Below are positions 1 to 27,204 of a DNA stretch of 64,000 bases, one piece after another. The notes beneath the pieces are model-generated. The model was not told the DNA's origin. It did no database searches and saw nothing but the letters and a program-made list of their open reading frames with translations. Positions within the stretch are counted from its first letter, which is position 1; each line of letters starts with the position of its first letter. A program made the position numbers and the translations under genes. This DNA is from a virus, in IMG/VR virus record IMGVR_UViG_3300034073_003340, positions 356,634 to 420,633 of that record, one strand, 5' to 3'.

Positions 1-572
1 CGAGCAAGACCATAAAACAGACGAGCATCGATTGGACAATTGGGGAAACGCTTGCGAAGATACGTCAAAGCTTCCTCAGTTGGACCATGTCCAACCTGCT
101 TCCAAGCATTGGTTAAATTACTGATGTGACTCATAGCACCAGGACGCTTTTTATCTGCTAGTGAATTTCCACAAGGCGTTACACCCGCACGGGCACAGGC
201 CGAAGCCAAAGCCAAGGTATCAGGATCCTGCTGGATTAGCAGATTACGGTACATGTCATACTTGCTAACCGGTTTCTGATTGGAGTTGATCGCAATAAAC
301 TGCTGACTCTGAAGTGCTACTGCCTGGGTGGCAGAGAGGCCAGCCGGCATTTCCATGACATAAACTTTGATTTTAGGAATCTTGGCCAAATATGCGCCAA
401 CACAAGTATGTTGCCCGTCAGTAATCAAAATCTTACCGTTGGAGTCAATGAAGCCGCTGGGGATTTTCATCTTCATAAAGCTGAATGCCTGGCCAATCTT
501 AGTGGCGTGTGGTACATTCAAATTGCGCTGATAGCTATGATCCAGATGGAGTTCTGCAGGATCAACATCCAT
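1..572 (-). CDS. Partial ORF (C-terminus lies beyond the window start) with a ParB/Srx-fold DGQHR-type domain, DndB/DUF262-like. An upstream SD+ATG at 681 is in another frame.
   Basis: Hand translation of the minus strand gives an open frame from 572 to position 1 containing DHSYQRNL and ILITDGQHTCVGA (DGQHR/DGQQR-like motif). It is absent from the ORF track because it runs off the window. Confidence 0.35.
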   Translation of the reverse strand, partial: MDVDPAELHLDHSYQRNLNVPHATKIGQAFSFMKMKIPSGFIDSNGKILITDGQHTCVGAYLAKIPKIKVYVMEMPAGLSATQAVALQSQQFIAINSNQKPVSKYDMYRNLLIQQDPDTLALASACARAGVTPCGNSLADKKRPGAMSHISNLTNAWKQVGHGPTEEALTYLRKRFPNCPIDARLFYGLA

Positions 573-821
573 GATGATCCCAGCGTTACCTGGATTTACA
601 TAGTTCAGATTGATAACGAGTTTGTGCTGTGCGGCAAGATCCGCGATAGAAATGGTATTCTGGTTGGTTACAGCGTTCATGGCTGGTCCTCCCTTTCTTT
701 AAGCGAGAATGTTTTTGTTTTTCAAAAGCGCCGTCTAATTCGGATCAGGACCGCTCCCTCGGGCTGTCCTCACTTTCTTATCACCAGTTATACTATTTCT
801 GGTTAGGGGAGTCAAAATAGA

Positions 822-846
822 AAAGGCGACCCAAGGGTCGCCTTTT
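822..846 (-). terminator. GC-rich hairpin (AAAGGCGACC-caag-GGTCGCCTTTT) followed by a T-run on both strands
   Basis: Perfect 10-bp stem with a 4-nt loop, flanked by T-rich sequence. Confidence 0.5.
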
Positions 847-1031
847 CGAGAGTCCTAAATATGCGCCATGCTAACTCTTCTGCATGTCTGGTTGTTGCGC
901 CGCAGTTACACCCTCTCGAGGAGTCGCAGAACAATTCCGAAGCCATACACCGGAAAGGGGAACCAGAACCCAACGCTGACTACAGCGTTCTTTTATATTT
1001 CATATTGGTAGAAGTCTATAATTCAAAAATT

Positions 1032-1058
1032 GGAGAAAGGTAGAAGGCACCTTTCTCC
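1032..1058 (-). terminator. Rho-independent terminator of the minus-strand gene 1067..1879
   Basis: GGAGAAAGG-tagaaggca-CCTTTCTCC stem-loop, followed on the minus strand by TTTTTGAAT. Confidence 0.6.
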
Positions 1059-1066
1059 AATTTCAA

Positions 1067-1879
1067 TTAAGCAGTGACTTCGTAAGTGAAGACAATCTGG
1101 TCAGCCGCATCTAGCGTATAGCCCAACACACCAGTGTTGAAGGTAACAACTTTGGTTGTTCCATTATAAGCATAAAGTTCTGATTTGACCGTCAATCCGT
1201 TTAAATGGACGATGATAGATGCTGGAATTGTTTTGTCAGCAAGAACAAAAGTCTGAGAGCCATTAAACTCACTGCGAGTCTGAGTTACTTTTGCTGCTTC
1301 AGTGGCAGCAGTAACCGCGCCAACTGTGGCAATTTCAAGATCTGGATCTGTGGCATCACTAGCATAGTAGATTTTACCAGTGCCACCACCATTGAGGAAA
1401 AGGTTTCCTGAACCAGCGCCACCAAGGAGAGCAAGGTCTTCGTCATCGTCAGCTTGGATGATACCGCCGCCAGCATTACCGATGATGACTTCACCGTTAC
1501 CCTGTGGGGCAATTACGATATCAATGTCAGCTTCGGTTCCCTTGGCCGCCACAGTTAGTCGACCGGTTTCGCCACTGAATTCAAAATTTTCATCGGTAGT
1601 GACGCCGCTCTTGAAAGTAGCAAAGTCCACAGCCTCAGTACCGTCAACATTTTCAACTGCGATCTTTACACCAGTTTCATCAGCGGCAGTGATTTTGTTG
1701 AAGGTGTTGATGCTATTGAGATGATCGTTAACCGACCATACAGGTGATCCACTAACCACACGAAGGACCTGATCGTCCTTACCAGAAGCACTGATGGTAG
1801 TGCCAGTTCCGCCTACGCCACCAATAAGCAGCGCGCCTGCTTCTGGTAGCTTTAGCTGTTTTGCTTTTAGCTGAGACAT
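1067..1879 (-). CDS. Glycine-rich, beta-rich protein; putative virion structural or fibre protein
   Basis: 270 aa with repeated GGxGG/GTGTT tracts and low complexity typical of tail-fibre or decoration proteins. No specific family recognised. Confidence 0.4.
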   Translation of the reverse strand: MSQLKAKQLKLPEAGALLIGGVGGTGTTISASGKDDQVLRVVSGSPVWSVNDHLNSINTFNKITAADETGVKIAVENVDGTEAVDFATFKSGVTTDENFEFSGETGRLTVAAKGTEADIDIVIAPQGNGEVIIGNAGGGIIQADDDEDLALLGGAGSGNLFLNGGGTGKIYYASDATDPDLEIATVGAVTAATEAAKVTQTRSEFNGSQTFVLADKTIPASIIVHLNGLTVKSELYAYNGTTKVVTFNTGVLGYTLDAADQIVFTYEVTA

Positions 1880-1964
1880 AAATTTCCTCCTACAGGATCA
1901 GTAATCGTATTTATTCTAACTGAGTTGAGGAAATTTATGAAAGAGCTGGATTTGGTCCAAAATA

Positions 1965-2321
1965 TCAAAAAGGCTTTGCTAGCTTGAACAAGCTGTTGAA
2001 CTGTAGAATTGCCTGACAAATAGCATGGGGCAAAGTGGTTCCTTTTGAACCAAAGTTGATTCCAGGAACCTGAGGATGTGTAATGGTCACGGACCAAGAA
2101 AGATCATCTTCGGCCTTGATCGCAAACGCGCATCCGGCAGCTTTATACCGTGATACCAATGAATGCGCTGTGGAGGTATCGGTACTATAAGGAGGAACAG
2201 AAACAAACTTTCTGTTTTCCATGTCACGAAGCTGAAAGGAGCCAGTCTCGGTGTCATGTATTACCACAACACCGAGAATTTTTCTGGCCACTTCAGCATC
2301 TAGTTCAGGACCAGGTAGCAT
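1965..2321 (-). CDS. Hypothetical protein
   Basis: 118-aa ORF, co-directional with and abutting the S21-like gene. Confidence 0.35.
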   Translation of the reverse strand: MLPGPELDAEVARKILGVVVIHDTETGSFQLRDMENRKFVSVPPYSTDTSTAHSLVSRYKAAGCAFAIKAEDDLSWSVTITHPQVPGINFGSKGTTLPHAICQAILQFNSLFKLAKPF

Positions 2322-2584
2322 CAGCTTTCCTGAAGACGATTCTTTTTCTTCTGACGGCGGACCGCTTCCTGACGCTTTTTACGAGCCACCTGACCCTTGG
2401 TCTCAGCATACTCCTTGCGGCGCATGTCCCTGATAAGACCTTCCTGGACTACTCGACGCTTGAGGGTCCTCATAGCAGAATCCAAATTCTTCAGAGCCTG
2501 CTCAGGGGTAAAAGCCGGCTTGACCTCGACCGCTAGTCCACGCTTGTGAATATCGCGACCGTTACCATTATAGTGTTGTCCCAC
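2321..2584 (-). CDS. rpsU: Ribosomal protein S21-like (bS21)
   Basis: The basic 87-aa protein aligns to bacterial S21: VEVKPAFTPEQALKNL...LKRR...EGLIRDMRRKEYAETKGQVARKKRQEAVRR versus IKVRENEPFDVALRRFKR...[29 protein letters not shown]. Phage-encoded S21 is known from marine myophages. Confidence 0.55.
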   Translation of the reverse strand: MGQHYNGNGRDIHKRGLAVEVKPAFTPEQALKNLDSAMRTLKRRVVQEGLIRDMRRKEYAETKGQVARKKRQEAVRRQKKKNRLQES

Positions 2585-2656
2585 GCTGGGATCTCCTGTT
2601 TGTAGTTAACTTAGATACTTTACTTATATCTAGCCAATTCTTCAATATTCAGGTTG

Positions 2657-2674
2657 ACTTTGTGGACACAAAGT
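2657..2674. promoter_or_regulatory. Perfect inverted repeat ACTTTGTG-ga-CACAAAGT overlapping a TTGACT (-35-like) hexamer in the divergent S21/lipoprotein intergenic region
   Basis: 8-bp arms with a 2-nt spacer, seen directly. TTGACT at 2654-2659, and a strong SD (AGAGGAG) before ATG 2703. Confidence 0.35.
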
Positions 2675-2702
2675 TTTACGGAAAACCCGCAGAGGAGATC
2701 TT

Positions 2703-3104
2703 ATGAATAAAATTGCCATGATTGCTGCCGTTAGTTTGGCTCTTACCGCTTGCGGTCCTGAACATATTCGTGACGAAGTTCGTGAAGTGGAAACCGGCGA
2801 TACTATCGTCTCCGATGGTTGGACGGACGTCGTTTTCCAAGGAGAAACGGATCCCAAGGTATCAGATCCAAACGCCCTGGCACTTCTCGATGAAAATAGC
2901 GATCCCGAACTGTATGTGAAAATCAAGGATATCAGCACGGGAGAGGAATTCAAAGTCTGGCTGGGGTATGAATGTAATAGATTCCCAATCCCCAAGGGTG
3001 CGAGATTCTTGGCGAAATTTGATATCATGGCGTATGAAAAATCCCCCAAGGAACTCTATATTCGCCCATACAGTGAACCAATCAACAAATATCTTTGCTC
3101 CTGA
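2703..3104 (+). CDS. Lipoprotein (signal peptide plus lipobox LTAC)
   Basis: N-terminus MNKIAMIAAVSLALTAC-G: hydrophobic h-region followed by a lipobox cysteine. Confidence 0.6.
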   Translation: MNKIAMIAAVSLALTACGPEHIRDEVREVETGDTIVSDGWTDVVFQGETDPKVSDPNALALLDENSDPELYVKIKDISTGEEFKVWLGYECNRFPIPKGARFLAKFDIMAYEKSPKELYIRPYSEPINKYLCS

Positions 3105-3706
3105 TCCTCTTTGAAAATTCGTCACGAATCAAGGTAGTTGATTCGAGTTCATTGATTTGAACGGAATGAACGAACTAGTGAGTGAATGTTGATCTTGCAG
3201 TAGGCGTGAAAGCCACACCTTTATCCCCCATTACGATACTGACATAAAAGTGTCATTGTTTCGTAATGAGGGATTCAGTGTCTTGCAGTTAGAGGCTGTC
3301 AGAGCACACCTTGAAACTGACGCTGAATAAATTCAGCACCGGGGTCACATTGTCGGTCTTACGGTCAGGAATCCTGGGGTAGTGGCGGCGTCCCAGTCAC
3401 ACGTTTCAAGTCGCATGAGCTGGGCAAAGAGGTGGTCGGAGTGGACCAGAACTCTTATCCAGGGGGTTCCTTGCGTTGTTTATACTGGCGCCAGACATAA
3501 CCTTTTCAACTCCTTGCGGAGGAGGCTGTCACCCCATGCTATGGCTCCTCACCATAGCTGATCTTCCAGTTTGCGCCTAGCCGCTCCCATCCCGTCTTCT
3601 TCCGGGCAAGGTATGGATGATGCTAGGTTGTTGGTGTCCTATTTACGGACGTTGAGTATAGGAATAACGTACTGGGTAATCCAGAGTCAGTATTATTCTA
3701 AACCAG
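3105..3706. other. About 600-bp ORF-free, GC-richer, stem-loop-rich segment; candidate structured ncRNA or decayed insert
   Basis: No ORF of 60 aa or more on either strand in a gene-dense genome. Several hairpins, e.g. CCCCATTACGA...TCGTAATGAGGG, GCTATGG-ctcctca-CCATAGC and GACA-taaaag-TGTC. Confidence 0.3.
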
Positions 3707-4396
3707 TTAGCTGATTTTTCCGAGCATGAATTGACCAAAAGTCTTCATGTCGGGAAGCTGGTGTTCCAGCCAGTCATTGAATCGTTGTATCTGTTCCTGG
3801 CGACGAATATCAGAAGTCTGTTTGATATGTTCAACGCAGCCCACGACTACAGCATAACATTGCGAGATGTCCTCAATACGCGCCCTATGAACGCCAGTGA
3901 GAACCATGTCCACTGTCACTATATCAAGAGCTTGCTCTTCGCGGACTTCGTTAGCAAGGGCGTCTAAACGCTCCTCAAAGGTAGTGCCGTCGAGAAACTC
4001 GATCGGCCAAGGATAGTGAGCAATCAGCTCAAACGTTTCTTCCTTGTATCCCAGCTTGGTTCCAATGCCTATACGCTCTTCAAGCCGAGCCATACGTGCC
4101 TCGGTCTTTTCATTGGCGTCGAATTCAATTTGATGATAATTCAACAACAGCTGAAAAGCGTAAACCTGTAAATCGGGATGAAGCCCTCCCAACCAAAGCG
4201 CGAAATTGTTGACCTTTAGATCAACCTCGGCAAAATCCATACCGGTGGTAAAATCTTCTAGAAGTATCTTACCAATCTTGTTGATAACCCGAACTTGATC
4301 GTCCAGAGACATAGCCTTTTCAGGGAACTTGCCTTTGAGGATTTTCTTAGCTTTTCCCATAAGATCTCCTATGTCAACGTGAGTTATGTCTAACAT
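3707..4396 (-). CDS. Hypothetical protein
   Basis: 229-aa ORF, no recognised motif. Confidence 0.45.
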   Translation of the reverse strand: MLDITHVDIGDLMGKAKKILKGKFPEKAMSLDDQVRVINKIGKILLEDFTTGMDFAEVDLKVNNFALWLGGLHPDLQVYAFQLLLNYHQIEFDANEKTEARMARLEERIGIGTKLGYKEETFELIAHYPWPIEFLDGTTFEERLDALANEVREEQALDIVTVDMVLTGVHRARIEDISQCYAVVVGCVEHIKQTSDIRRQEQIQRFNDWLEHQLPDMKTFGQFMLGKIS

Positions 4397-4579
4397 AGGA
4401 GATCATGACGTCAACCATTTAATCCTTCTTCAAAGCCTAGGTTCCAATAGATATATTCTTCAGAACCTCTTGAATAGGGATTGTGAGCAAGGGAATCACA
4501 TCCTAGTCTGACAGCGGTTCCTGCTAGCCAGCCAGCATGTTTAGCCTGTGATAATGTCTTGGAGTCAGATGCGTCTTTT

Positions 4580-5047
4580 TTATGCCTCTCGGTCAAGCCT
4601 ACCGAGCAACTCCCCAAATAGCTCTTCTGTATCACTTGGCACCTCATAGGCCAGCGCAAGACGTAATGTGTCAAGCAAAATACACCGATCTGAAATTATG
4701 CCACTAGTTCTATCAAGCATACCTTGGAGAAGAAACGATACTACTTTGAAATCGCTAGCCGTTTTATCTTCCAACATATCTACGCCGTTGGCTATCAGAA
4801 GAGCTTCCAATTGCCGATATATTGGGGTAGCCGGAACTCCTTTTGCTATTTTCTTGTTTGTTACCAGTTTGATAACATTATCTTCATTATGATTAGCGGG
4901 TTCGATTTTTGACGACACATTTTCCCGCTCGGAGCTCAATTGAACCCCGAACAAATTTACTACTTTGGTGTTCACAAGGGCTCCTGTAATAACGCAATTG
5001 GATAAAGGATATTTGGATAGCGACCCCCAATCATCCATATAACACAA
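4580..5047 (-). CDS. Hypothetical protein
   Basis: 155-aa ORF. It overlaps the small ORF 4411..4674, whose start is uncertain. Confidence 0.4.
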   Translation of the reverse strand: MCYMDDWGSLSKYPLSNCVITGALVNTKVVNLFGVQLSSERENVSSKIEPANHNEDNVIKLVTNKKIAKGVPATPIYRQLEALLIANGVDMLEDKTASDFKVVSFLLQGMLDRTSGIISDRCILLDTLRLALAYEVPSDTEELFGELLGRLDREA

Positions 5048-5211
5048 CGTGGCCCCTCCGCCGTTGCGCTATTAAGCAAAGCTATAGAAAACGGTTTTTC
5101 CTTTCAAGCAAAAAGTTACGCAGAGGTTAAATTTGTCAGTGGATAACTCCAGTAAATCGCAAGTCCTTTTGTAGAGCCAAGGAAATAGCGTTACTTACAT
5201 GGAGATAGGTT

Positions 5212-5245
5212 ATGAAGTCTAATAACAAATGTTATTAGACTTCAT
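5212..5245. terminator. Perfect 15-bp-stem hairpin (ATGAAGTCTAATAAC-aaat-GTTATTAGACTTCAT) downstream of the clpX-infC operon
   Basis: Seen directly; it lies 90 nt past the infC stop on the minus strand. No strong T-run follows, so it may be a processing or protein-binding site rather than an intrinsic terminator. Confidence 0.4.
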
Positions 5246-5334
5246 AGAATACAGAATTTAGGATATGTTTTATACAAGCTTTGCTTGCTTGAAAAGCATA
5301 TAAACAAAGCTTTATATCTGCTTAGTTCTGCAGA

Positions 5335-5910
5335 TTACTTCTTAGGTAGTGGAGCAATGATAGCAAAAAGCTGGCGCTCGCTTCGAACCACCGGACGTTC
5401 AAACTTGTAATCCGTGAGAGCATCGCAGAATTCCCGCATCACGTTTGCTCCCACATCCAAATGGGTAATCTCACGCCCTTTGAACTTCATGACAATTTTG
5501 ACCTTGTCGCCATCTTCAAGAAAGCTTTGGGCGCGGCGTGCTTTGACCTTGAGATCATTGCTGTCAGTTGTAGGACGAAGTTGAATTTCTTTGAGCTCAA
5601 CTCTGGCCTCTCGGGCTTTTGCTTTGTTTTCCTTCTCTTTACGGCTCTGCTCATATTTGAACCGCCCGTAATCGAGAATCTTACATACTGGAACTCCATC
5701 GGCAATATTAATTGCCACTAGATCCAGACCTGCTGCGCTCGCTCGACGTCTTGCTTCGATGGTGGGTATAATGCCTACCTGCTCGCCAGAGTCAGCAATG
5801 AGACGAACCTCCCTTGCTCGGATTTGATCGTTCACCGCATATTGAAAATTCAAAGTCGTTATTCCTTTCTGTTGCCAAGCTATCCTATGATAGAAATTTC
5901 TTGGTGTCAA
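5335..5910 (-). CDS. infC: Translation initiation factor IF-3
   Basis: Strong full-length similarity to bacterial IF-3 across both domains: IRAREVRLI..GEQVGII, AGLDLVAI...PVCKILDYGRFKYEQ, IQLRPTTD.NDLKVK.R....FLEDGDKVKIVMKFKGRE. It carries an N-terminal extension of about 25 aa. Confidence 0.85.
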   Translation of the reverse strand: MTPRNFYHRIAWQQKGITTLNFQYAVNDQIRAREVRLIADSGEQVGIIPTIEARRRASAAGLDLVAINIADGVPVCKILDYGRFKYEQSRKEKENKAKAREARVELKEIQLRPTTDSNDLKVKARRAQSFLEDGDKVKIVMKFKGREITHLDVGANVMREFCDALTDYKFERPVVRSERQLFAIIAPLPKK

Positions 5911-7164
5911 TTACTCGTTAGCTGCCTTGGTATCAAATACTACCAAGGGCTCACACTTTCCTTCAATTACATCGGCGGTTACCCTGACCGTATGTGCGCC
6001 CTGTTCCTTTAGATCCGGAAGATCATATTGTACTCGAATAAGGCGTTTCTCAATAACAGACCTAAGACCTCTGGCTCCTGTCTTACGAGAAATAGCATCT
6101 TTTGCTACTGCGCGAAGAGCCTCCTCGTCGAACTCCAGAGATACTTCTTCGAGACTAAACATCTTCTGAAATTGCTTTACCAAGGAATTCTTGGGTTCAG
6201 TTAGAACCTGAACCAGTTGATCCTGATCCAACTCTTCAAGACTGGTGATAACGGGAAGTCGTCCCACGAGTTCAGGAATCAAACCAAATTTTGTTAGGTC
6301 CTCTGGTTCAACAGCTGATAGAACTTTGTTTGATTCGCTCTTTTCCTGTTCAGTCTGAACGTTGGCTCCAAAACCAATTGATCCCTTGTTTTTATTCTGT
6401 CGCTTGTTGATGATTTCGTCCAGACCCACAAATGCCCCACCAACAATGAACAGAATATTCTTGGTATTCACAATGGCCATTTCCGCATTAGGGTGTTTGC
6501 GATTGCCTGTGACTGGAACTCGAACTTCGCTTCCTTCGATGATCTTCAAAAGAGCTTGCTGAACTCCTTCACCCGAGACATCACGGGAGATGCTCGCACT
6601 GTCGCCCCTCTTGGCTTTTTTATCAACTTCGTCGAGATAAACGATGCCTCTTTCGGCCTTTGCTATATCATTGTCACAGACCTGGAGAAGGCGAGAAATG
6701 ATAGTTTCCACATCATCGCCCACATATCCAGATTCAGTCAAAGACGTGGCATCAGCAATAGTAAATGGAACGTCCAACAGCTTGGCGATGCTACGAGCCA
6801 TCAAAGTCTTACCAGAGCCAGTAGGACCAAGGAGTAGAATGTTGGATTTCTCCAGTTCCACGTCGTCAACCACAGGATTAGCAAGTCGCTTATAATGATT
6901 ATGGACCGCGACTGCCATCACCATTTTGGCATCATTTTGACCAATAACATACTGGTCAAGGAACTCTCGGATCTGTCGAGGGCTTGGAATGCTGCCATCT
7001 TTTAGAAGCTTGGCTTCAGCGTTGCTATCCTCTTTTAGAATATCTGCGCAAAGTTGAACACAGTCATTACAGATGAAAACATCTGGACCCGCGATCAACT
7101 TGGTTACCTGTTCTTGACGCTTACCGCAAAAAGAGCAGCTTAGATTTTTCTTATTCTCGCTCAT
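5911..7164 (-). CDS. clpX: ATP-dependent Clp protease ATP-binding subunit ClpX
   Basis: N-terminal C4 zinc finger (CSFCGK...CNDC), Walker A GPTGSGKT, and AAA+ sensor motifs. Length of 417 aa is typical of ClpX. Confidence 0.9.
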   Translation of the reverse strand: MSENKKNLSCSFCGKRQEQVTKLIAGPDVFICNDCVQLCADILKEDSNAEAKLLKDGSIPSPRQIREFLDQYVIGQNDAKMVMAVAVHNHYKRLANPVVDDVELEKSNILLLGPTGSGKTLMARSIAKLLDVPFTIADATSLTESGYVGDDVETIISRLLQVCDNDIAKAERGIVYLDEVDKKAKRGDSASISRDVSGEGVQQALLKIIEGSEVRVPVTGNRKHPNAEMAIVNTKNILFIVGGAFVGLDEIINKRQNKNKGSIGFGANVQTEQEKSESNKVLSAVEPEDLTKFGLIPELVGRLPVITSLEELDQDQLVQVLTEPKNSLVKQFQKMFSLEEVSLEFDEEALRAVAKDAISRKTGARGLRSVIEKRLIRVQYDLPDLKEQGAHTVRVTADVIEGKCEPLVVFDTKAANE

Positions 7165-7254
7165 TCTGACCTCAGAGTAAACAGGGGATGTCTGATATTT
7201 AGTAGGTGTCTATCCATGCTCTGATACTAAGTCCTTGATGTTGAAATCGCATTA

Positions 7255-8535
7255 TTAAAGTCCAGGTCTAGGATTCTGCATAGCAATCGCTACCTGGACA
7301 ATATCATTCACGATGTCTGGATTCATTTCTAGAACCTCTATGATAAGATCCTTGGGATCCTTGCCGTCATCCTGATCATGCCTTTCAGGCTTCCATTCGT
7401 TTATTGCCTGTTGTTGAGCAATGAGATCTTTTTCCCAGTCACTCAAAAGCTGACGGTCGTCGTTTAGTCTAGCTTCCATTTCCAATAATTGCTTATGGGC
7501 AATTCCAAGTGCTTCTTGATCCGCCATAATCTGAGATTTTGCTTTTTCCAGGTTTGAATTCTCTTCAGCAATGACGTTTGACATTTCTAAAATAGAAGCT
7601 TCCAGCTCTTCTTTTTCTTGGAGTATTTTACGCTTGGCATCCTCCAAAGCAAATTCATCCAATCCGTCTGATTCAAGAACAGTCTCTTCAGTTATTGGAC
7701 TATTCTCAATGGTTTCATTTGGTAGTATACCATTTGAGTCAAAAGAATTCTTTGGTGATTCTTCACCACTTTCTTCAGCAAGGATCACATGATCCTTGGA
7801 TCGCCTTTCCTGATAATCCTTGAGAGAGATACTTCCGGCAATGAAGAGCGAAAGGGCCAACGGATCAAAAGCTATCATGATGATTACGATAATGATACGA
7901 ACTGCTGCCTCTGGGTCCCAACCAAACAGCTCTGCTACATATTTTACTGGACCTAGCTTTGCTTCAACTTCAGCACCTTGTGTTTTCAAAGGAACTAGTT
8001 TGGTGTTGAGGTCATTTATGGCAGAATTATTGGCATCAATTTTCTCTTGGATCTTGGCCGACTCTTGTCTTTGGGAATTTGCCGCACGGAGACCTGCGCG
8101 TCCACTGGATTCAAGACTTCTATCGGTAATTCGGCTGATTTGATCCAAACGTGATTGAAGCTGGTCGTTTTCTGTTTGTTTCTGCTTCAGCTGGGTTTCA
8201 AGCTGAGCTACTTGGATATTGATACCAGCCACCGGGGCATTTTGTTCTAGGTGCCCCTTGCTCAGATATCCATATATGCCAAGACTGGTTATAGCCATTA
8301 GAGCGGCAATGAAGACGCAAAACAGACCACGAAAATACCACGGAGCTCTAGGGTTTCTCCAATTAGCATGAACCCACTTCGTTGCTACGATCTTTCCGAC
8401 CTCTAATGTACCAGTCATAACAACCACTCCCCAGAAGGTGGCAGCAAACAATGCGCCCATGCCGACCAAGGAGAAATAAGCGGCAACGCTAGAAATTGCG
8501 GCCGCGATGAAGAAGATTAGAAAAATGAATGCCAT
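7255..8535 (-). CDS. Membrane protein with N-terminal TM helices and a long coiled-coil region
   Basis: Hydrophobic N-terminus, heptad-like QLETQLKQKQTENDQLQ segments, and a second hydrophobic block. Confidence 0.5.
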   Translation of the reverse strand: MAFIFLIFFIAAAISSVAAYFSLVGMGALFAATFWGVVVMTGTLEVGKIVATKWVHANWRNPRAPWYFRGLFCVFIAALMAITSLGIYGYLSKGHLEQNAPVAGINIQVAQLETQLKQKQTENDQLQSRLDQISRITDRSLESSGRAGLRAANSQRQESAKIQEKIDANNSAINDLNTKLVPLKTQGAEVEAKLGPVKYVAELFGWDPEAAVRIIIVIIMIAFDPLALSLFIAGSISLKDYQERRSKDHVILAEESGEESPKNSFDSNGILPNETIENSPITEETVLESDGLDEFALEDAKRKILQEKEELEASILEMSNVIAEENSNLEKAKSQIMADQEALGIAHKQLLEMEARLNDDRQLLSDWEKDLIAQQQAINEWKPERHDQDDGKDPKDLIIEVLEMNPDIVNDIVQVAIAMQNPRPGL

Positions 8536-8619
8536 GTTTTGCCTCTGAGATATCTGATAGTGATACGGACCGCAACCGCGGACTGTCTACTTATCACTAT
8601 CAGATATTATCAGGGTAGT

Positions 8620-9084
8620 TTATACACGCTTGCTCAAGAGACGCTTGAACAAACCAATGAAGCGATTACCTAAACATTCAAGTTGAGTTTTGATAGAAGG
8701 ATCTCGCTGAGGCGTGATATCAGTCAGGCCGTTATAACGATCCAAGAATTTCCAAGAAATATCCTTGGCTCCGAAAACCTCAAGAGCCTTGAATGCCATT
8801 TCTGGATCTAGGTCGCTACAGGTGTAGATGTCAAATTCAATAAAAGGCTGCTCGCACTCATCCCAAGTATGTAGGACCATATGAGATGTTGTGATGAGAA
8901 CCATCGCGGTCATTCCGCGATTTCCAACCTGTTCACAATATTCAGCAGAAGCCTCTTTGAGAACTTCCATATTCATTGCGTGAACGATGTCAGTAAGCCA
9001 CTGTTCGACCATTCGCTCATCCTTTTTCAAGGGCGGACGATCAACAGCGGCGTGAACAATCAGGTGCTTGTGAAGCTTTGCCAT
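8620..9084 (-). CDS. speD: S-adenosylmethionine decarboxylase proenzyme, class 1 (SpeH/SpeD-like)
   Basis: Close match to small bacterial/archaeal AdoMetDC: HLIVHA...GMTAMVLITTSHMVLHTWDE...IEFDIYTCSDLDPEMAFKALE versus [20 protein letters not shown]...IDLFTCG. The Ser-His processing site is retained. Confidence 0.75.
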   Translation of the reverse strand: MAKLHKHLIVHAAVDRPPLKKDERMVEQWLTDIVHAMNMEVLKEASAEYCEQVGNRGMTAMVLITTSHMVLHTWDECEQPFIEFDIYTCSDLDPEMAFKALEVFGAKDISWKFLDRYNGLTDITPQRDPSIKTQLECLGNRFIGLFKRLLSKRV

Positions 9085-9169
9085 TTTATCTCCTAATCAA
9101 AAGATCGCGCTCTGCGATAAGCGTGTCTCGGGAAGATTAGGAAATCCGCTTCTTCCTCCGTAGCACTGT

Positions 9170-9616
9170 TTAGAAAAACTTTGCCGTAGCGGTGATATTT
9201 ATCGGACTAGAGATCTTCTCATATCCTCGACTGGCTATGAGGTCATTGGACTTTACTGGCTTGAATCCAGCGTCACGATCCAACGACCAAGTGATATGAA
9301 AAGTCTTACCGTCTGGTCGAACGGTTGTTCCGTCCACCTCTACAACCAGGGCTTCAATACCCAAGGGATCACAAGCATAACCAACCACCTTAAAAGTAGA
9401 AGCCTCGGGTAATGGCTGATCGCTCTTGACTCCCATCTTATACGTGATGTGATGACCAATGAACTCAGGGAACTTGGGAGGGAAAATGCTGGCAAGGTGT
9501 GAGCGACTTTGGTCACTGACTTCGAACGCCTGGTAGCCCCCGCGAGGCTTAGGCGCACTTTCCAAGATGTCTTTTGCTCTCATTTTTCCTCCACAAGAAA
9601 ACTTCTTATTGCGCAC
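9170..9616 (-). CDS. Hypothetical protein
   Basis: 148-aa ORF; the start may be at the internal MRAKD. Confidence 0.4.
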   Translation of the reverse strand: MRNKKFSCGGKMRAKDILESAPKPRGGYQAFEVSDQSRSHLASIFPPKFPEFIGHHITYKMGVKSDQPLPEASTFKVVGYACDPLGIEALVVEVDGTTVRPDGKTFHITWSLDRDAGFKPVKSNDLIASRGYEKISSPINITATAKFF

Positions 9617-9723
9617 CTAATGATAGACGTCAACCTTGATTTGATAAATCGTTCTGTATCCTGGTAGAAATAGACTTCTAGGGTTCTATACCTGTAAAAA
9701 GAATTCATAAGCAGAGGCAAGAG

Positions 9724-11595
9724 ATGTCCAATAACATTAAGAAACTAACAGATTATCAGCACGCTAGACTCAGAACAGAGATGTATCTGGGCTCAAGAGC
9801 GCTTCATACCCAAAGCGTCCTACAGTTTGTAGATGGTGTTCCTAAGCCAGTTGAAACAAGTTGGGTTCCGGCAACCTATACGGCTTTCAGAGAAGTTCTA
9901 GACAATGCCTTAGATGAGGTGGTAGGCCATGGACACGGATCCAGGATTGACGTAAACTACGACGTCAAGACTAGGGAAATCAGTATTTCTGATGACGGGC
10001 GTGGTATCCCCTTTACCTATGATGAATCACATAAGATGCATCTTGCTACCTTGGTTATGACCGAAGCGCGAGCTGGTCGAAACTTTGAGGAGCGTGGCGA
10101 AGTAGCAGGCACCAATGGTATTGGTGCGTCGGTTGTAAACTTTTGTTCAGAATATTTCCGAATGGAAATCAACAAGGACGGTGAACGTTTTCAACAAGAG
10201 TTCACGCAGGGCAATGCGGTTTTCGGTGATGAGCTTCAAGTTGGTAAAGCTAAAATCACCAAGAAGCAAGGTAAGAACGGAACCAAGATTACATTCAAAC
10301 TTTCAGACGAAGTATTTCCTGACCTAACACTACCTGAGGAATTTATCAGGACCAGAGTAACAGAGGTCGCGATCTGTAATCCTCTTATCAAAGTCTATTA
10401 CAATGGTGAACAGATCAAGGTAAAGCCCCGTCCAGAGCAAAGTTTGTTTCCTGGTTTGAAGCCTATTGCTCTTGAGGTAAAGGAAGACACGTTCCGTTCG
10501 CGCTTTTGGATTGTGCCTAACTGGATTGATGGCGGTGAACACGTTCACACGATTGTAAACAACATTCCCGCGTTCAACGGCGGGGTTCATATCGACACAT
10601 TCCGTCGTTTGTTCTATGGAAATCTTCTGACCGCGCTGGAGCGTGAAAGCAAGCGTCGCAAATTGAGTCCCAACCGCAGTGACGTCACTGAGGGTGTTCT
10701 GATCTACAATATTACGAACATGCGAGCTCCTAACTTTGACAGCCAGAGCAAGACTCGACTGATCAACGAAGAGGTAGGTAAGATCCTCAAGGATCACCTC
10801 GACAACCCAGAACTCTACAAGGACTTCATCAAGAAGAACAAAGAGTGGATTGAAGAGATCTACAAGCGTTGCGCAGAGCGTACGATGAAAAAGGATCTTG
10901 GGGACTTAGCAAAGGCTGCTAAGAAGAACCTTCGTAATAAGGTTCCTCGTCTCATGGACGCTGCGGGTCAAGATAGATCCAAATGTATCCTATTTCTAGC
11001 AGAGGGTGAATCAGCCATCTCAGGAATGGGTGCCGCCCGCGATCCTGATCTACATGGCGGTCTCGGCATGAAAGGCAAGGTTCTCAACGTTAACGGTGAA
11101 ATGCCCAAGAGGGTTATCGAGAACAAAGAGCTCGCTGACATCATGAATTGCTTGGGGCTGATTATTGGCCAAAAGGCGCACCGTGGTGCTTTGCGTTATG
11201 GTAAGGTTTACATTGCGCACGACATGGATCCTGACGGTTTGAACATTGGCGCTTTGATGATCAATTTTTTCCACACTTATTGGCCTGAGCTGTTTGATCC
11301 CAATCAGGAACCCTTTGTTCATATTTTTCGAACTCCCTTTATTATTGCGGAAAAGGGTAAGACTCGCAAATATTGGTATGCCCACAATTATCATGAGTTC
11401 AAACCTGAAGAATATAGTGGTTGGACCATCACGCGGGCCAAGGGGCTTGGAACGCTAACTAGGGAAGATTGGGAATATAGCTTAAAGAACCCAGAAGTAT
11501 ATCCGGTCTTGGATGATGGCAAAATTGGTGAAACTCTAGATTTGATTTTCAATAGCAAACGTTCAGACGATCGCAAGGCGTGGATTGGACTCTAA
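9724..11595 (+). CDS. DNA topoisomerase II large subunit (T4 gp39+gp60-like, GyrB-type ATPase plus Toprim)
   Basis: GHKL ATPase motifs (EVLDNALDE, DDGRGIP, GTNGIGAS), a Toprim segment (LFLAEGESA..., DMDPDG), and a length of 623 aa consistent with a fused 39/60. Confidence 0.85.
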   Translation: MSNNIKKLTDYQHARLRTEMYLGSRALHTQSVLQFVDGVPKPVETSWVPATYTAFREVLDNALDEVVGHGHGSRIDVNYDVKTREISISDDGRGIPFTYDESHKMHLATLVMTEARAGRNFEERGEVAGTNGIGASVVNFCSEYFRMEINKDGERFQQEFTQGNAVFGDELQVGKAKITKKQGKNGTKITFKLSDEVFPDLTLPEEFIRTRVTEVAICNPLIKVYYNGEQIKVKPRPEQSLFPGLKPIALEVKEDTFRSRFWIVPNWIDGGEHVHTIVNNIPAFNGGVHIDTFRRLFYGNLLTALERESKRRKLSPNRSDVTEGVLIYNITNMRAPNFDSQSKTRLINEEVGKILKDHLDNPELYKDFIKKNKEWIEEIYKRCAERTMKKDLGDLAKAAKKNLRNKVPRLMDAAGQDRSKCILFLAEGESAISGMGAARDPDLHGGLGMKGKVLNVNGEMPKRVIENKELADIMNCLGLIIGQKAHRGALRYGKVYIAHDMDPDGLNIGALMINFFHTYWPELFDPNQEPFVHIFRTPFIIAEKGKTRKYWYAHNYHEFKPEEYSGWTITRAKGLGTLTREDWEYSLKNPEVYPVLDDGKIGETLDLIFNSKRSDDRKAWIGL

Positions 11596-11608
11596 ATCTT
11601 GGTGACCA

Positions 11609-13669: not shown

Positions 13670-13752
13670 GAGCTTAGAAGAGGGCATATGAGAAAACGAT
13701 CAGCCCTTTTCAGCGAACACTAGGAAGCAATCCCGCTTCCTGGAGTATTGTT

Positions 13753-15412: not shown

Positions 15413-16765
15413 ATGAATCAAAATAGCTCATCAGATTATATCCTAGACACCAGTCGCGAATACTCAATTTACGTTTGCGAAAGCCGAGCAATTCCAAAAG
15501 TTGCTGACGGTCTCAAAGACGCCCAACGCAAGGCGTTATGGTTGGTTCGCAATAGATCAGATAAAACAAAAACCGTTTCGCTAGCTGGTGAAATGATTTC
15601 CAGCGGCCTTTATCTACATGGTGACCAAAGTGCGGCCGGGGCTATCAGCATGTTGGCTGCTCCATATGTTAACAATGTTCCACTTTTGGAAGGTATTGGT
15701 TCGTTTGGAACCCGAGTGGCACCGGTAGACGGTATCGGCGCTCCGCGTTATACCTATGTCAAACGTGGAAAAGCGGCCCAAGATCTTATGTTTATGGATC
15801 TTGATATCGTACCGGTCAAAGAAAATTATGACGGTTCCACTATCGAACCCCAAAACTTCCTTCCCCTCATCCCAACAGTGCTCTTAAATGGAGTCTCAGG
15901 CATTGCTGTTGGTTGGTCTACCGAGATCTTACCCAGATCCTTTAAGAGCCTCGTAGACGCCACATTGGCCATTTTAGACGGAAAAAAGATCAAGCGTATT
16001 CCACCTTCCTATGATCTCTACGACGTGGGGGTCAAACACTTGGAGGATAATTCTTGGGAGTTCACTGGTAAGTTGGAGATTGTTGATACCAGCACGATCA
16101 AAGTTACCGAACTGCCTCCAGAACTCACGTTGGAGAAATTCAAAGAACGTCTCAACACCTATGAAGACGAAAATAAGATCTCTTCATATACTGATCGTTC
16201 AACTGATACCATTGATATCACGATCAAAATGGCTAGAGGGTCTTGTAAGGGTTGGTCTTCTACTAGAGCTATTGAATATTTCAAACTCAAGCAGAAGAAG
16301 TCAGAACGTATTGTGGTTATCGACTGGAATGGATCCTCTATTCGTCAGTATGAAAGCGCCGAAAAGCTTGTTGAGGATTTTGTTGAATGGCGACTGGGAT
16401 GGTATAAGACCCGCTATGAAAACAAAGTGGCCAAGGACGAATATGAACTAGGATTTTGGAAGGGGGTCAAGCTTTGCTTTGATGATAAACTTCCTGCTCG
16501 ACTAGGTGCTATCAAGAGTCGATCTGAACTAGATCAGGACGTCAACAACGTTACATCAAAGCTTGCCCTTGATAACAAGCGTATTGACCGCATCGTCAAT
16601 CTCCCAGCTCATCGTTGGACCAAGGATGCGTATGGTGATGTTTTGGCCAAAATCAAAGAGCTAGAAGCTAACATTAAGGAATACAAGCGTATTCTAAAGG
16701 ATCCTGAGGAGCGAAAGTCCATCTACCGATCAGAAGTAGAGGCTCTAAAAAAGACCAAGTTCTAA
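15413..16765 (+). CDS. DNA topoisomerase II medium subunit (T4 gp52-like, GyrA-type breakage-reunion domain)
   Basis: N-terminal DGLKDAQRKALW (the GyrA/ParC DGLKPVQRR signature) and a length of 450 aa like gp52. Confidence 0.8.
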   Translation: MNQNSSSDYILDTSREYSIYVCESRAIPKVADGLKDAQRKALWLVRNRSDKTKTVSLAGEMISSGLYLHGDQSAAGAISMLAAPYVNNVPLLEGIGSFGTRVAPVDGIGAPRYTYVKRGKAAQDLMFMDLDIVPVKENYDGSTIEPQNFLPLIPTVLLNGVSGIAVGWSTEILPRSFKSLVDATLAILDGKKIKRIPPSYDLYDVGVKHLEDNSWEFTGKLEIVDTSTIKVTELPPELTLEKFKERLNTYEDENKISSYTDRSTDTIDITIKMARGSCKGWSSTRAIEYFKLKQKKSERIVVIDWNGSSIRQYESAEKLVEDFVEWRLGWYKTRYENKVAKDEYELGFWKGVKLCFDDKLPARLGAIKSRSELDQDVNNVTSKLALDNKRIDRIVNLPAHRWTKDAYGDVLAKIKELEANIKEYKRILKDPEERKSIYRSEVEALKKTKF

Positions 16766-18064: not shown

Positions 18065-18298
18065 TTAGCTTTGAAGTTTCAAAAACATCGCATATCGCTT
18101 TTCGATCTTTTCGATCGCTTCAAGATACGGTTTGGCGGCTTCTTCCGCCGCCAATCGTTTTGCTTGATTCATTTCCAGCTTGAGATCTTGTATTTGATTC
18201 CACATATCCGTGATAGCAGAACCTTCACTAAGGATCTCCTGCTCGGTTGACTCGGATTTACCCATCAACTGTTTACGGATATCAGCAAGAATACTCAT
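18065..18298 (-). CDS. Small hypothetical protein
   Basis: 77-aa ORF coupled (ATGA overlap) to the upstream L7/L12-like gene. Confidence 0.4.
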   Translation of the reverse strand: MSILADIRKQLMGKSESTEQEILSEGSAITDMWNQIQDLKLEMNQAKRLAAEEAAKPYLEAIEKIEKRYAMFLKLQS

Positions 18299-18747
18299 GC
18301 GAAGTTGACCTCAAACCCACACTGGCGCAGCTCTTCTATACTATTCAGTATACTCTTTTCACGATTTAGAGGATCATCGCCTGTCGAACGTTCCAGTTCA
18401 GCTGTTTGGACTGATGTCTCTGCTTTTTCAATAGCTGCCTTTGATTCCACCAAACCCAAATTGGTCATGCTCCGCAGGACCTTTATGGCCCGGATCTTGA
18501 ATCCAATGCCGGATCCACCGCTTCGATAAAGATCATCATCAACAAGGCGAAATGAAATTCGGCCAGTAACTTGATATAGATTGGATAGCTTATTGAGGAT
18601 CACGCGATCCTTCCATGACTTGCCAAGTGTTCCTTCAAGCGCAGAAATCGCTTGATTAGCAGTCTCCGCCCCAAACGTAAGGTTGACCACCCGCAGAAAC
18701 TGCTGACTTATTTCGTCCAGCAATTGGGTATCCACCTTGTTTTCCAT
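18295..18747 (-). CDS. Ribosomal protein L7/L12 C-terminal-domain-like protein
   Basis: C-terminal 70 aa align to the bL12 CTD: GFKIRAIKVLRSMTNLGLVESKAAIE...ELRQCGFEV versus [24 protein letters not shown]...LEEAGAEVEV. Confidence 0.5.
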   Translation of the reverse strand: MENKVDTQLLDEISQQFLRVVNLTFGAETANQAISALEGTLGKSWKDRVILNKLSNLYQVTGRISFRLVDDDLYRSGGSGIGFKIRAIKVLRSMTNLGLVESKAAIEKAETSVQTAELERSTGDDPLNREKSILNSIEELRQCGFEVNFA

Positions 18748-22858: not shown

Positions 22859-23145
22859 GAGAACTTGGCCTCGAACTCCTGAGCTACCTCGATTCGATCC
22901 TTGGGGAAGAACACGGTTGTGATGTCGTGCTCGTCCGACGAACGCGAGGTCATGACCTCGATACCATGGCCCTCAATGAAGGCACGAGCCTCATCGCCGA
23001 TCACCCAATGAAAGGTGTCCGGCCACTTGTGATCCGTTTCCTTCTTCATATGAGCGAAGCCGACCATGCGTACGGGAATACACAGGGCCTGCTTCGCCCG
23101 TATGCGCTCAAAAGCGGACATGATCTCGGCGTGACGGTCGGTCAT
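22855..23145 (-). CDS. Hypothetical protein in a GC-rich cassette with the CCA gene
   Basis: 96-aa ORF with a 4-nt overlap to cca; local GC is clearly higher than the flanks (by eye). Confidence 0.45.
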   Translation of the reverse strand: MTDRHAEIMSAFERIRAKQALCIPVRMVGFAHMKKETDHKWPDTFHWVIGDEARAFIEGHGIEVMTSRSSDEHDITTVFFPKDRIEVAQEFEAKFS

Positions 23146-24278
23146 GCTTCGATCGCCAGCAGTTCTTCCTTGGTTCGCGTAAACCGACTGAATACCCAGG
23201 CATTCTCCAGCATCCGCAGCCGCTGACCCATGGCCGGGCCAGGCTTCATACCCAGTGCCAGCAGATCCTTACCCGTTACCGGGAAAGTGGGAACCTTGAA
23301 CGCCTCGGCATGACGTGCCAGCGAGGGCTCGCCTGCGATCTCCAGCATGGAAACCACATGATCCAGGGGGAACTTGTCGCGAGTCAGCATAACCTCAACC
23401 CGCTCTTCGGTCCAGTTCAGACCGCGATTGCGAATCAGGTTGCGCACCTTGGCTTCTTCGGCACTGCTCATCTTCCAAAACTTGAAGAAGTTCTCTTCAT
23501 CGGTGTTGGCGATCAGCGTCGACAGAGCAGCAACCGCATCATCCGACCGAGCCAGCTCAACGGGGTTGAACCGGAAAACACCCAGCGCACGATTGACGCC
23601 GGTCTTGAACATCGCGTCAACGATCCGAACCCGAGCCGGCATCTTGGGATCCAGCAGCTTGCTCATTTCCTGCCAAAAACGCTCCACACTGACAAGGTTC
23701 AGTTTGTCCAGAACTTCGGCATCGCTGAACAGATCCAGATCGTCCTGGCTCATCGTGCTGTCGAAACGAGCAGCAAAGCGGAAGTAGCGCAGAATACGCA
23801 GGTAATCTTCCTGGACTCGCAGTTCCGAAACACCAACAAAGCGCACAACCTTGTTCTTCAGATCCTCGCGACCACCAAAGTAGTCGTAAACCAGACCGTT
23901 GAAGTCCATGCTCATTGCGTTGATGGTCAGGTCGCGACGCTCAGCATCAATTTCGAAGCTGCGAGTAAACTCAACCTCGGCATGTCGACCGTCAGTCTCG
24001 ACATCCACGCGCAGGGTGGTGACCTCAAATGCTTCGCCGTCCACGACCAGCGTTGCCGTGCCGTGCTGGACACCGGTGGCAATGAAACCAAACTTGTTGG
24101 TGTTAGCAATAGCTTTCATTTCGTCCGGAGTAGCATCGGTGCAGAAGTCCACATCCTTGGGGACCACACCCAGCAGAGCGTCACGGACGCAACCACCAAC
24201 AAAGCGGATCTCGAAACCGGCAGAAGAAAATGCTTCTCCCAGCTTGCGCGTTTCCGGTGTCATCAGCTTGTCCAGCAC
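23142..24278 (-). CDS. cca: tRNA nucleotidyltransferase (CCA-adding enzyme) / poly(A) polymerase family
   Basis: Pol-beta head GGCVRDALLG..PKDVDF, RRDLTINA, and the neck ED..RILRYFRFAARF motif. Confidence 0.8.
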   Translation of the reverse strand: MLDKLMTPETRKLGEAFSSAGFEIRFVGGCVRDALLGVVPKDVDFCTDATPDEMKAIANTNKFGFIATGVQHGTATLVVDGEAFEVTTLRVDVETDGRHAEVEFTRSFEIDAERRDLTINAMSMDFNGLVYDYFGGREDLKNKVVRFVGVSELRVQEDYLRILRYFRFAARFDSTMSQDDLDLFSDAEVLDKLNLVSVERFWQEMSKLLDPKMPARVRIVDAMFKTGVNRALGVFRFNPVELARSDDAVAALSTLIANTDEENFFKFWKMSSAEEAKVRNLIRNRGLNWTEERVEVMLTRDKFPLDHVVSMLEIAGEPSLARHAEAFKVPTFPVTGKDLLALGMKPGPAMGQRLRMLENAWVFSRFTRTKEELLAIEA

Positions 24279-27158: not shown

Positions 27159-27163
27159 TCAAG

Positions 27164-27193: not shown

Positions 27194-27204
27194 CTATTCT
27201 AGAT

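Follow-up and report, generated by a model that had tools for sequence, protein, structure and literature searches.

A virus that encodes a translation initiation factor, ribosomal-protein-like products, and a protein unfoldase of bacterial type raises the question of whether such genes were picked up recently from a host or have long belonged to the virus, and of what they do there. We addressed this question for 64,000 nt of the IMG/VR virus record IMGVR_UViG_3300034073_003340 (positions 356,634 to 420,633; this whole stretch is hereafter called the window). A preliminary description of the window had listed four open reading frames (ORFs) as a phage translation and proteostasis set, namely those for initiation factor IF-3 (infC), the AAA+ unfoldase ClpX (clpX), an S21-like protein, and a protein with an L7/L12 C-terminal domain (CTD); all four were present at the coordinates given there, and all lie on the minus strand. 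Judging from sequence comparisons, the window probably covers part of the region for replication and auxiliary genes in a jumbo myovirus that has not been cultivated and belongs to the lineage of Atu_ph07, Phosso, and AP-J-162, with related contigs of 435–470 kb, and the clpX, infC, S21, and bL12-CTD genes are probably long-resident phage genes that were inherited vertically rather than recent host pick-ups.

The first line of evidence is collinearity with isolated phages. A DNA search led to Sinorhizobium phage Phosso (469 kb) and Agrobacterium phage Atu_ph07 (490 kb), in both of which the ClpX and IF-3 genes are adjacent. In local tblastn comparisons, infC, clpX, a 148-aa ORF, the two topoisomerase II subunit genes, and ORFs located at 16.8–18.1 and 18.8–19.4 kb matched Phosso and Atu_ph07 in the same order, and two further ORFs, the L12-like gene among them, matched Phosso only. 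Of the nine window ORFs with any match, between 5.3 and 19.4 kb, eight were collinear with Phosso and six with Atu_ph07, at identities of 30–70% to Phosso and 21–60% to Atu_ph07 (to Phosso and Atu_ph07, respectively, 63% and 54% for ClpX, 49% and 41% for IF-3, and 70% and 60% for topoisomerase II). By collinearity and protein similarity, the window belongs to the Atu_ph07-like jumbo phages (Polybotosvirus and relatives; jumbo group 2.2 of Iyer et al.). A primase and a virion structural protein were recognised by PHROG matches, and a DnaB-like helicase domain by Pfam; a ribonucleotide reductase, an HNH endonuclease, an Mtd_N tail-fibre domain, and a phage ABA-sandwich protein are encoded elsewhere in the window. 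No tRNA genes were found in the 64 kb, no typical bacterial housekeeping operons were found among the ORFs scanned, and both the infC-rpmI-rplT operon and the clpP-clpX-lon arrangement are absent from the locus. An independently assembled contig (L003) is 100% identical to window positions 1–15853, and a 435,856-bp contig encodes an identical ClpX (P0121) and an identical L12-like protein (P0241). The GC content of the window is approximately 45%. The preliminary description had named a bacterial origin of the contig as the finding that would overturn it; the collinearity with Phosso and Atu_ph07 from infC to approximately 19.4 kb instead identifies the contig as phage DNA.

Atu_ph07 (Polybotosvirus; gp1 IF-3, gp2 ClpX, gp4-5 topoisomerase II), Phosso, and AP-J-162 share with the window the order IF-3, ClpX, a conserved small hypothetical gene, and the divergently oriented genes for the topoisomerase II large subunit and subunit A. 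In Phosso, as in the window, subsequent hypothetical genes and an L12-like gene follow, and the S21 gene lies a few kb away. The window lineage departs from Atu_ph07 and Phosso in that clpX is separated from the topoisomerase genes by inserted genes for a 426-aa membrane protein and for S-adenosylmethionine (AdoMet) decarboxylase, and in that more small paralogues lie between its two topoisomerase subunit genes; it is known from metagenomes only, whereas those two phages have been isolated. Within the ±10 kb covered by the gene contexts of related contigs, those at 100%, 56%, and 51% IF-3 identity (L003, L005, and L007) encode AdoMet decarboxylase, ClpX, IF-3, and then S21, with an ABA-sandwich protein after S21 in L003 and L005; all four of the sampled contexts have ClpX beside IF-3. 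The adjacency of clpX and infC thus holds from 100% down to 41% IF-3 identity, and S21 lies within 1.5–7 kb of infC in every case.

A related linkage was found in the RaK2-like phages (Klebsiella RaK2, Xanthomonas XaC1, and relatives), in which IF-3 is likewise encoded near topoisomerase II, a Clp-system gene stands beside infC, and the IF-3 groups with that of the window against bacterial IF-3. In RaK2 and XaC1, a distance of 2–3.5 kb separates infC from the gene for the topoisomerase II large subunit, and the next gene after infC encodes a ClpS-domain protein (RaK2 ORF154, L009 4508–5047, PF02617 24.4 bits; XaC1_403, L010 4560–5108, PF02617 17.1 bits). In contrast to the window, the Clp neighbour in these phages is a ClpS-domain protein rather than ClpX, the infC and topoisomerase genes point in the same direction instead of diverging, and IF-3 identity is only 33–35%.

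The IF-3 protein itself is canonical in most respects. The product of infC (5335..5853, minus strand, 172 aa, TTG start) scored 170.8 bits against TIGR00168 (cut-off, 60) and covered the full IF3_N (94.8 bits) and IF3_C (88.7 bits) profiles, and it is 44% identical to E. coli IF-3, with the same two-domain architecture. Its residues were compared by alignment to E. coli IF3 (8jsg): it retains R99, R112, R133, R168, K110, D106, Y70, and Y75, has conservative replacements in R129K and R131K, differs at R116S, R147E, and Y107L, and retains the Lys-rich linker, aligned with a 2-residue insertion. Of the eight C-domain arginines reported to be used in 30S binding (R99, R112, R116, R129, R131, R133, R147, and R168; Petrelli et al. 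2003), four are thus identical, two are conservatively replaced, and two are lost.

The homologues of this IF-3 formed a continuous series of approximately 70 metagenomic clusters with 51–100% identity, on contigs of up to approximately 470 kb, beyond which there was a sharp drop to bacterial IF-3 at ≤54% identity. The nearest named bacterial IF-3s, from alphaproteobacterial and Lachnospiraceae metagenome-assembled genomes, reached 48–54% over part of the protein. In a neighbour-joining tree of 127 sequences with 100 bootstrap replicates, the window clade, Phosso, Atu_ph07, RaK2, and XaC1 fell into one 78-member group with 65% bootstrap support, and the five phages were split from all named bacterial IF-3s in 97 of the 100 replicates. 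The preliminary description had proposed phylogenies to distinguish a host-derived copy from a long-resident viral clade, and for IF-3 the separation from the named bacterial sequences favours the viral clade. The conserved synteny described above is independent support, beside the tree, for an old viral IF-3.

The gene model of infC required correction. The preliminary description had infC extending from 5335 to 5910 and lying directly downstream of clpX; the gene is intact and co-oriented with clpX, but its start is most likely the TTG at 5853, which has an AGGA 9 nt upstream. The maximal ORF, to 5910, is in the same frame as clpX and begins at the codon right after the clpX TAA, and we discounted 5910 as the start because it is merely the first possible start codon past the in-frame clpX stop. 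Independent gene callers gave the identical 172-aa protein (P0001) in two other assemblies. With the start at 5853, a 57-nt spacer (5854..5910, minus strand) therefore separates the two genes. The window reads TAA-TTGACA-N17-TAGGAT-…-AGGA-N9-TTG-AAT (TTGACA at 5910–5905, TAGGAT at 5887–5882, and AGGA at 5866–5863). The layout is alike in Phosso and Atu_ph07, where TTGACAC comes just past the stop codon of clpX and is followed by a Shine-Dalgarno sequence and the non-ATG start GTG-AAT in place of the TTG-AAT of the window.

The TTGACA-17-TAGGAT element is the best sigma-70-like match in the 1–10 kb region, agreeing at 10 of 12 positions, and the TTGACA of the spacer recurs in Phosso, Atu_ph07, and L007. 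Promoter-like sites in the 1–10 kb region were not above those of shuffled sequences (18 vs 14.8 ± 3.5), and because the region is not enriched in such sites, we infer a promoter function for the spacer from positional conservation only; by this measure, infC appears to have its own sigma-70-like promoter. E. coli infC starts with AUU, a codon used for IF-3 autoregulation. In all relatives of the window the infC start is TTG or GTG, not AUU, and with its TTG start the window infC would therefore lack the AUU-based autoregulation of the bacterial gene. The ORFs downstream of infC (4580–5047 and 3707–4396) matched neither L35 nor L20 nor any other Pfam family. Bacteria differ from the window in having a clpP-clpX operon, an infC-rpmI-rplT operon, and an AUU infC start, none of which the window has; the AUU start and the infC-rpmI-rplT operon are features of the regulation of the bacterial gene, not of the protein family.

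Two other interpretations of the spacer were rejected. A ClpX–IF-3 read-through fusion does not fit the relatives, all of which have their own Shine-Dalgarno sequence and start codon, and the Phosso spacer is 65 nt long and out of frame; the in-frame relation of clpX and infC in the window is probably coincidental. A conserved RNA hairpin or attenuator was not supported either, with z = −1.0 in the window and significance in Phosso only, not in Atu_ph07 or L007. The Phosso spacer (L001 8375–8407) contains a perfect 16-bp inverted repeat (GGTTATCCTGTTA…TAACAGGATAACC region) that overlaps the promoter-like site (RNA fold, −24.5 kcal/mol; z = −3.97) and is not kept in the window, Atu_ph07, or L007.

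The clpX gene (5911..7164, minus strand) encodes a full-length AAA+ unfoldase of 417 aa that scored 603.6 bits against NF003745 (cut-off, 359) and 564.9 bits against TIGR00382 (cut-off, 370.75), with the domains zf-C4_ClpX (PF06689, 65.6 bits), AAA_2, and ClpB_D2-small. In the alignment with E. coli ClpX (8e91), the four zinc-finger Cys residues, the Walker A motif GPTGSGKT, the Walker B motif DEVD (YLDEVDK), the pore-1 GYVG, the GRLPV Arg finger, the GARGLR sensor-II, and the RKH loop are all kept, and GSIGFGA aligns with the IGF loop by which ClpX docks on ClpP. The confident, full-length identification given earlier was borne out in that the equivalog cut-off was exceeded and every ATPase and ClpP-docking motif is kept, and from its sequence we expect the window ClpX to be active as an unfoldase and to dock on ClpP. 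The deep nodes of the ClpX neighbour-joining tree were not resolved, and the smallest group containing the window, Phosso, and Atu_ph07 comprised 102 of the 117 sequences. Because of this lack of resolution at depth, the common ancestry of the phage clpX genes is supported by synteny and conserved position, not by the tree.

The S21-like gene (2321..2584, minus strand, 87 aa) is also intact and full-length, and it exceeded the curated cut-offs, with 38.7 bits against PF01165 (cut-off, 27) and 41.2 bits against TIGR00030 (cut-off, 28.95). Residues 32–83 align to the bS21 chains of solved ribosomes, and the core helices are kept. The protein has an 8-residue insert relative to bacterial bS21, and a basic and aromatic N-terminal extension of 16 residues (MxxHxxGxxRxIxKxGL) that is common to L005, L007, and Phosso and is missing in E. 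coli S21. An extension of this kind has already been reported for huge-phage S21 (Al-Shayeb et al. 2020).

The fourth protein was only partly as described. The gene at 18295..18747 (minus strand, 150 aa) had been assigned to a protein with an L7/L12 CTD, and the predicted structure contains a complete bL12-CTD-type fold, but the N-terminal domain is not that of bL12 and the protein is not ribosomal L7/L12. The sequence scored 29.1 bits against PF00542 (cut-off, 25.9), covering only profile positions 12–43 of 67, and its sequence matches to bL12 are confined to the helix 4-5 segment; TIGR00855 gave 20.1 bits against a cut-off of 84.4, and Ribosomal_L12_N was unmatched. A word-based search found 4 homologues, whereas an exhaustive search gave 152 matches, of which approximately 35 were full-length proteins of approximately 150 aa; in the remaining matches a 30-residue segment is repeated 2–6 times, and P0260 has five PF00542 stretches. 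AlphaFold 2 (AF2) with 4 sequences gave an unusable model (predicted local distance difference test [pLDDT], 48), and with 26 sequences from the exhaustive search gave one with pLDDT 83.8, in which a three-helix bundle (residues 8–54) is followed by a β-α-α-β-α-β domain (residues 63–149). In the family, K84, I88, and K103 are invariant and I85, K89, R92, L99, and E107 are nearly invariant, and these align to E. coli bL12 K65, I69, K84, V66, K70, R73, L80, and E88, residues reported to form the translation-factor-binding face (Helgstrand et al. 2007). The L12-like protein, as modelled, is therefore a bL12-CTD-type domain on a non-bL12 scaffold and not a bL12 orthologue. Its predicted C-terminal domain shares with bacterial bL12 the CTD fold and the conserved helix 4-5 face; bacterial bL12 has an L10-binding dimerisation domain and a hinge, and the window protein has an unrelated N-terminal three-helix domain in their place. 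Because it lacks the L10-binding domain, a place on the ribosomal stalk cannot be taken for granted. We also considered a ClpS adaptor (PF02617), which shares the superfold, and rejected it, since there was neither a ClpS profile match nor a better structural match than to bL12.

The partners of ClpX extend beyond the window. A ClpS adaptor (PF02617, 108 bits) is encoded by the same genome at L003 16996–17289, 1.1–1.4 kb beyond window position 1, so that this phage has more Clp genes than those within the window. L007 also carries ClpS (13960–14253). A probe with E. coli ClpP found 64%-identical ClpP in both Atu_ph07 and Phosso. Atu_ph07 also encodes ClpS, ClpA, and ClpB, and its genome is reported to have seven Clp-family genes, including ClpX, ClpA, ClpB, ClpP, and ClpS (Attai et al. 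2018). As for possible substrates, approximately 12 small paralogous ORFs (67–154 aa) occupy 11609–15351 (plus strand) between the topoisomerase II subunit genes, a further copy lies at 25062–25307 (minus strand), and they share an invariant Trp and the C-terminal pattern …F.F….DAxLFKLxWGG-COOH (alignment A1); Phosso has four small hypothetical genes between its topoisomerase II subunit genes. The proposed comparison of the tails of this family with ClpX degrons showed no resemblance to the C-terminal classes considered, as DAxLFKLxWGG-COOH is unlike both the ssrA type (LAA-COOH) and the basic MuA type.

Several observations weigh against a long-resident phage gene set with the functions proposed below. 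The window ClpX is closer to E. coli ClpX (57.4% identity) than to that of Atu_ph07 (53.5–54.3%; to Phosso, 62.6–62.8%), within a tree that is unresolved at depth. Long-branch attraction could inflate the grouping of the phage IF-3s in the neighbour-joining tree, and the exact 78-member clade has only the 65% support given above. The IF-3 substitutions R116S, R147E, and Y107L are non-conservative and could alter or weaken 30S binding or fidelity. No ClpP was found among the scanned ORFs of the 64-kb window. The spacer promoter is a consensus match, and its TTGACA is missing from L005. All steps of the mode of action are drawn from conservation.

With these points in mind, the gene set may act as follows. 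The phage ClpX would form a normal hexameric unfoldase whose IGF loops dock on the ClpP of the phage, encoded elsewhere as in Atu_ph07 and Phosso, or on that of the host, and, in the infected cell, would degrade or remodel particular proteins of the host or the phage; with ClpS and, in relatives, ClpA, it could constitute the phage's own Clp proteolysis system. The phage IF-3 would use the C-domain arginines, most of which are conserved, to bind the platform of the host 30S subunit and supplement or replace host IF-3, keeping 30S subunits available and possibly shifting start-site selection toward phage mRNAs. The phage bS21, with its basic extension, may enter the host 30S subunit near the anti-Shine-Dalgarno region and bias initiation. 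The bL12-CTD-like protein would show the bL12 factor-binding face on another scaffold and, because its N-terminal scaffold differs from that of bL12, probably binds translational GTPases away from the stalk. The direct viral remodelling of host initiation fidelity, ribosome composition, and protein turnover that had been suggested from the gene content may occur, but the suggestion goes further than the sequences support.

The best-surviving alternative concerns the substrates of ClpX. It may serve the DNA replication module, as ClpXP does with lambda O and MuA, by remodelling an initiator or topoisomerase, with the adjacency of infC being functionally meaningless; we consider this possible, although on balance rather unlikely. 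In every relative clpX lies beside the T4-type topoisomerase II genes, and its N-terminal zinc-finger domain, which E. coli ClpX uses to recognise lambda O and MuA, is intact in the window protein. A replication role has already been proposed for Atu_ph07, in which ClpX adjoins the topoisomerase genes (Attai et al. 2018), and for AP-J-162 (Kozlova et al. 2024). However, this evidence is purely positional, and in the window lineage a membrane protein gene and the AdoMet decarboxylase gene are inserted between clpX and the topoisomerase genes. For ClpX, a replication role is also compatible with the long-resident phage gene explanation, and only the proposed substrate differs.

A stronger claim, that the four genes form a coordinated translation and proteostasis takeover module in which, for example, phage ClpXP removes host IF-3, bS21, or other components of translation and phage versions replace them, seems to us doubtful. 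The persistence of the clpX–infC adjacency across the whole range of IF-3 identity, the constant proximity of S21 to infC, and the ClpS-domain gene after infC in RaK2 and XaC1, where the IF-3/Clp linkage recurs with another component, are what one would expect of such a module. However, topoisomerase II, AdoMet decarboxylase, and unrelated genes share this linkage, and the block may be just a region of early genes that has been conserved; a separate promoter seems to serve infC, a distance of 11 kb and the topoisomerase genes lie between the block and the L12-like gene, and no degron-like C-terminal tails were found on the neighbouring small family. Conservation of a block of early or replication genes would explain the linkage equally well.

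Equally improbable, in our estimate, is that the phage IF-3, S21, and L12-like proteins, or some of them, are inhibitors or decoys that shut down host translation, for example by blocking 30S or by sequestering EF-G, EF-Tu, or IF2. The non-conservative R116S, R147E, and Y107L of IF-3 and the missing L10-binding domain of the L12-like protein would suit such proteins, but phage translation uses the same ribosomes and a general inhibitor would harm the phage too, and the rest of IF-3 is canonical, purifying selection on both domains and the linker being evident in a clade of 51–100% identity. More speculatively still, and with little expectation that it will prove correct, infC may have been linked to a Clp-system gene and to topoisomerase II since before the split of the Atu_ph07-like and RaK2-like phages, both T4-related, and this could reflect a coupling: phage Clp would clear away components of host initiation, or early proteins of the phage, and IF-3, S21, and the free bL12-CTD would reprogramme the 30S platform and factor recruitment.

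That the genes are recent acquisitions mirroring the current host's infC, clpX, and rpsU is disfavoured, and we regard it as very unlikely. It would account for a ClpX that is about equally similar to E. coli (57%) and Atu_ph07 (53.5%) and shares the RKH loop with E. coli, and for the named bacterial IF-3s at 48–54% over part of the protein. However, bacterial IF-3 never exceeded 54%, whereas the approximately 70 metagenomic clusters, with their contigs of up to approximately 470 kb, span 51–100%; the same gene order occurs across phages of different hosts; the phage IF-3s are separated from named bacterial IF-3s with 97% bootstrap support; and the S21 extension and the TTG/GTG-AAT infC start are common to the phages. 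Finally, a bacterial chromosome or a chimeric assembly with ordinary housekeeping genes, to which the bacterial type of these genes and the bacterial-looking genes for TelA, flotillin, YqiJ, and PAS-domain proteins, found in a higher-GC stretch, might point, is for practical purposes refuted by the gene order of two isolated jumbo phages, the split T4-type topoisomerase II, primase, and virion structural protein in the window, the lack of both the infC-rpmI-rplT operon and the clpP-clpX-lon arrangement, the independent assembly of the same 15.8-kb stretch, and the occurrence of P0121 on a 435,856-bp contig.

The gene set and its arrangement are already published for Atu_ph07, AP-J-162, and huge phages: Iyer et al. 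2021 cited the Atu_ph07 ClpX and IF3 by accession, and Kozlova et al. 2024 described an AP-J-162 clpX that directly adjoins IF-3 and topoisomerase and listed S21 and L7/L12. Al-Shayeb et al. 2020 counted IF3, S21, and L7/L12 among the huge-phage genes redirecting translation; their huge phages belong to different clades from the window and have mostly Bacteroidetes or Firmicutes hosts. Viral ribosomal proteins were described by Mizuno et al. 2019, as cited in Al-Shayeb et al. 2020. Among 50,697 deposited phage records, 102 had IF-3 and 71 had ClpX; several of these were contaminated assemblies, and most of the others were jumbo or huge phages. The earlier remark that viruses encode IF-3 and ClpX much more rarely than S21 is therefore right across all phages, but both are standard in this jumbo-phage lineage. 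Records that resemble host contamination include Escherichia phage EC22.5-2 (3 kb, with a ClpP 100% identical to that of E. coli), Staphylococcus phage SA 1306 Kay, Listeria LM 4-11-1 and 4-14-1, Enterococcus Efs 1-1-1, and Acinetobacter phage MD-2021a; the ClpX, ClpP, and IF-3 of such records are highly identical to bacterial genes and inflate the counts of "phage" IF-3 and ClpX.

Mechanistically, our results contain nothing new and leave existing knowledge unchanged. They add an uncultivated branch, with approximately 70 IF-3 clusters and contigs of up to approximately 470 kb, to the known jumbo phages with their own IF-3, S21, and Clp system. The additions, all modest, are the corrected infC gene model, the evidence for a single old viral clade of jumbo-phage IF-3, the extension of the IF-3/Clp/topoisomerase II linkage to the RaK2-like phages, and a model-based case that the "L7/L12" gene encodes a stand-alone factor-binding domain rather than a stalk protein, in a family that keeps the factor-binding face. 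We found no functional test of a phage IF-3 in the literature, and biochemical work on translation factors encoded by phages could reasonably begin with any of these proteins.

Upstream of clpX, an AdoMet decarboxylase gene (8620..9084, minus strand; PF02675, 62.8 bits) occupies the same place in L003, L005, and L007. Between it and clpX lies the gene for the 426-aa membrane or coiled-coil protein (7255..8535, minus strand), which has a hydrophobic N-terminus and no Pfam family above the cut-off; a gene of approximately 425 aa is at the equivalent position in L003 and L005. In Phosso, a gene of the glutathionylspermidine synthase family lies between the S21 and IF-3 genes, and polyamine metabolism may sit beside translation genes in these phages. 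Divergent from the clpX–infC block, the T4-type topoisomerase II large subunit (gp39-like; 9724..11595, plus strand; DNA_gyraseB, TOPRIM_C, HATPase_c, and Toprim) is 70% identical to that of Phosso and 60% to that of Atu_ph07, and subunit A (gp52-like; 15413..16765, plus strand; DNA_topoisoIV, 245 bits) is 66% and 56% identical, respectively. The CCA-adding enzyme (tRNA nucleotidyltransferase) that had been mentioned as context is real (23142..24278, minus strand; PolyA_pol head domain, 115.4 bits; tRNA_NucTran2_2, 38.6 bits). An RNA ligase, also mentioned, was not found by Pfam searches of all ORFs >300 aa or by comparison of several unannotated ORFs with PHROGs and PDB sequences.

In the stretch of approximately 26000–33600 (minus strand), GC content rises to 0.50–0.535 from approximately 0.45 elsewhere, and the genes there encode NADAR, staphylococcal-nuclease-like, TelA, 5-bromo-4-chloroindolyl phosphate hydrolysis (XpaC-like), and flotillin/SPFH proteins and a YqiJ-like membrane protein; this looks like a bacterial-type membrane-stress cassette within the phage genome. 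A 555-aa protein (44395–46062, minus strand) has an N-terminal InPase (inorganic pyrophosphatase, PF18823) domain followed by approximately 400 residues without a family match. A 556-aa protein with approximately four PAS domains and no recognised output domain is encoded at 52273–53943 by a gene on the plus strand, which carries few genes in that part of the window; both GC skew and AT skew are locally reversed at this gene. Outside the window, one or two genes of the Thg1-like (tRNA-His guanylyltransferase) family lie near the gene block in L005 (4447–6085) and L007 (11316–12125). L007, whose IF-3 is 51% identical, also carries flagellin, FlaF, and FlbT genes beside the block (67–1667), and flagellin regulators of the FlaF/FlbT type may hint at an alphaproteobacterial host.

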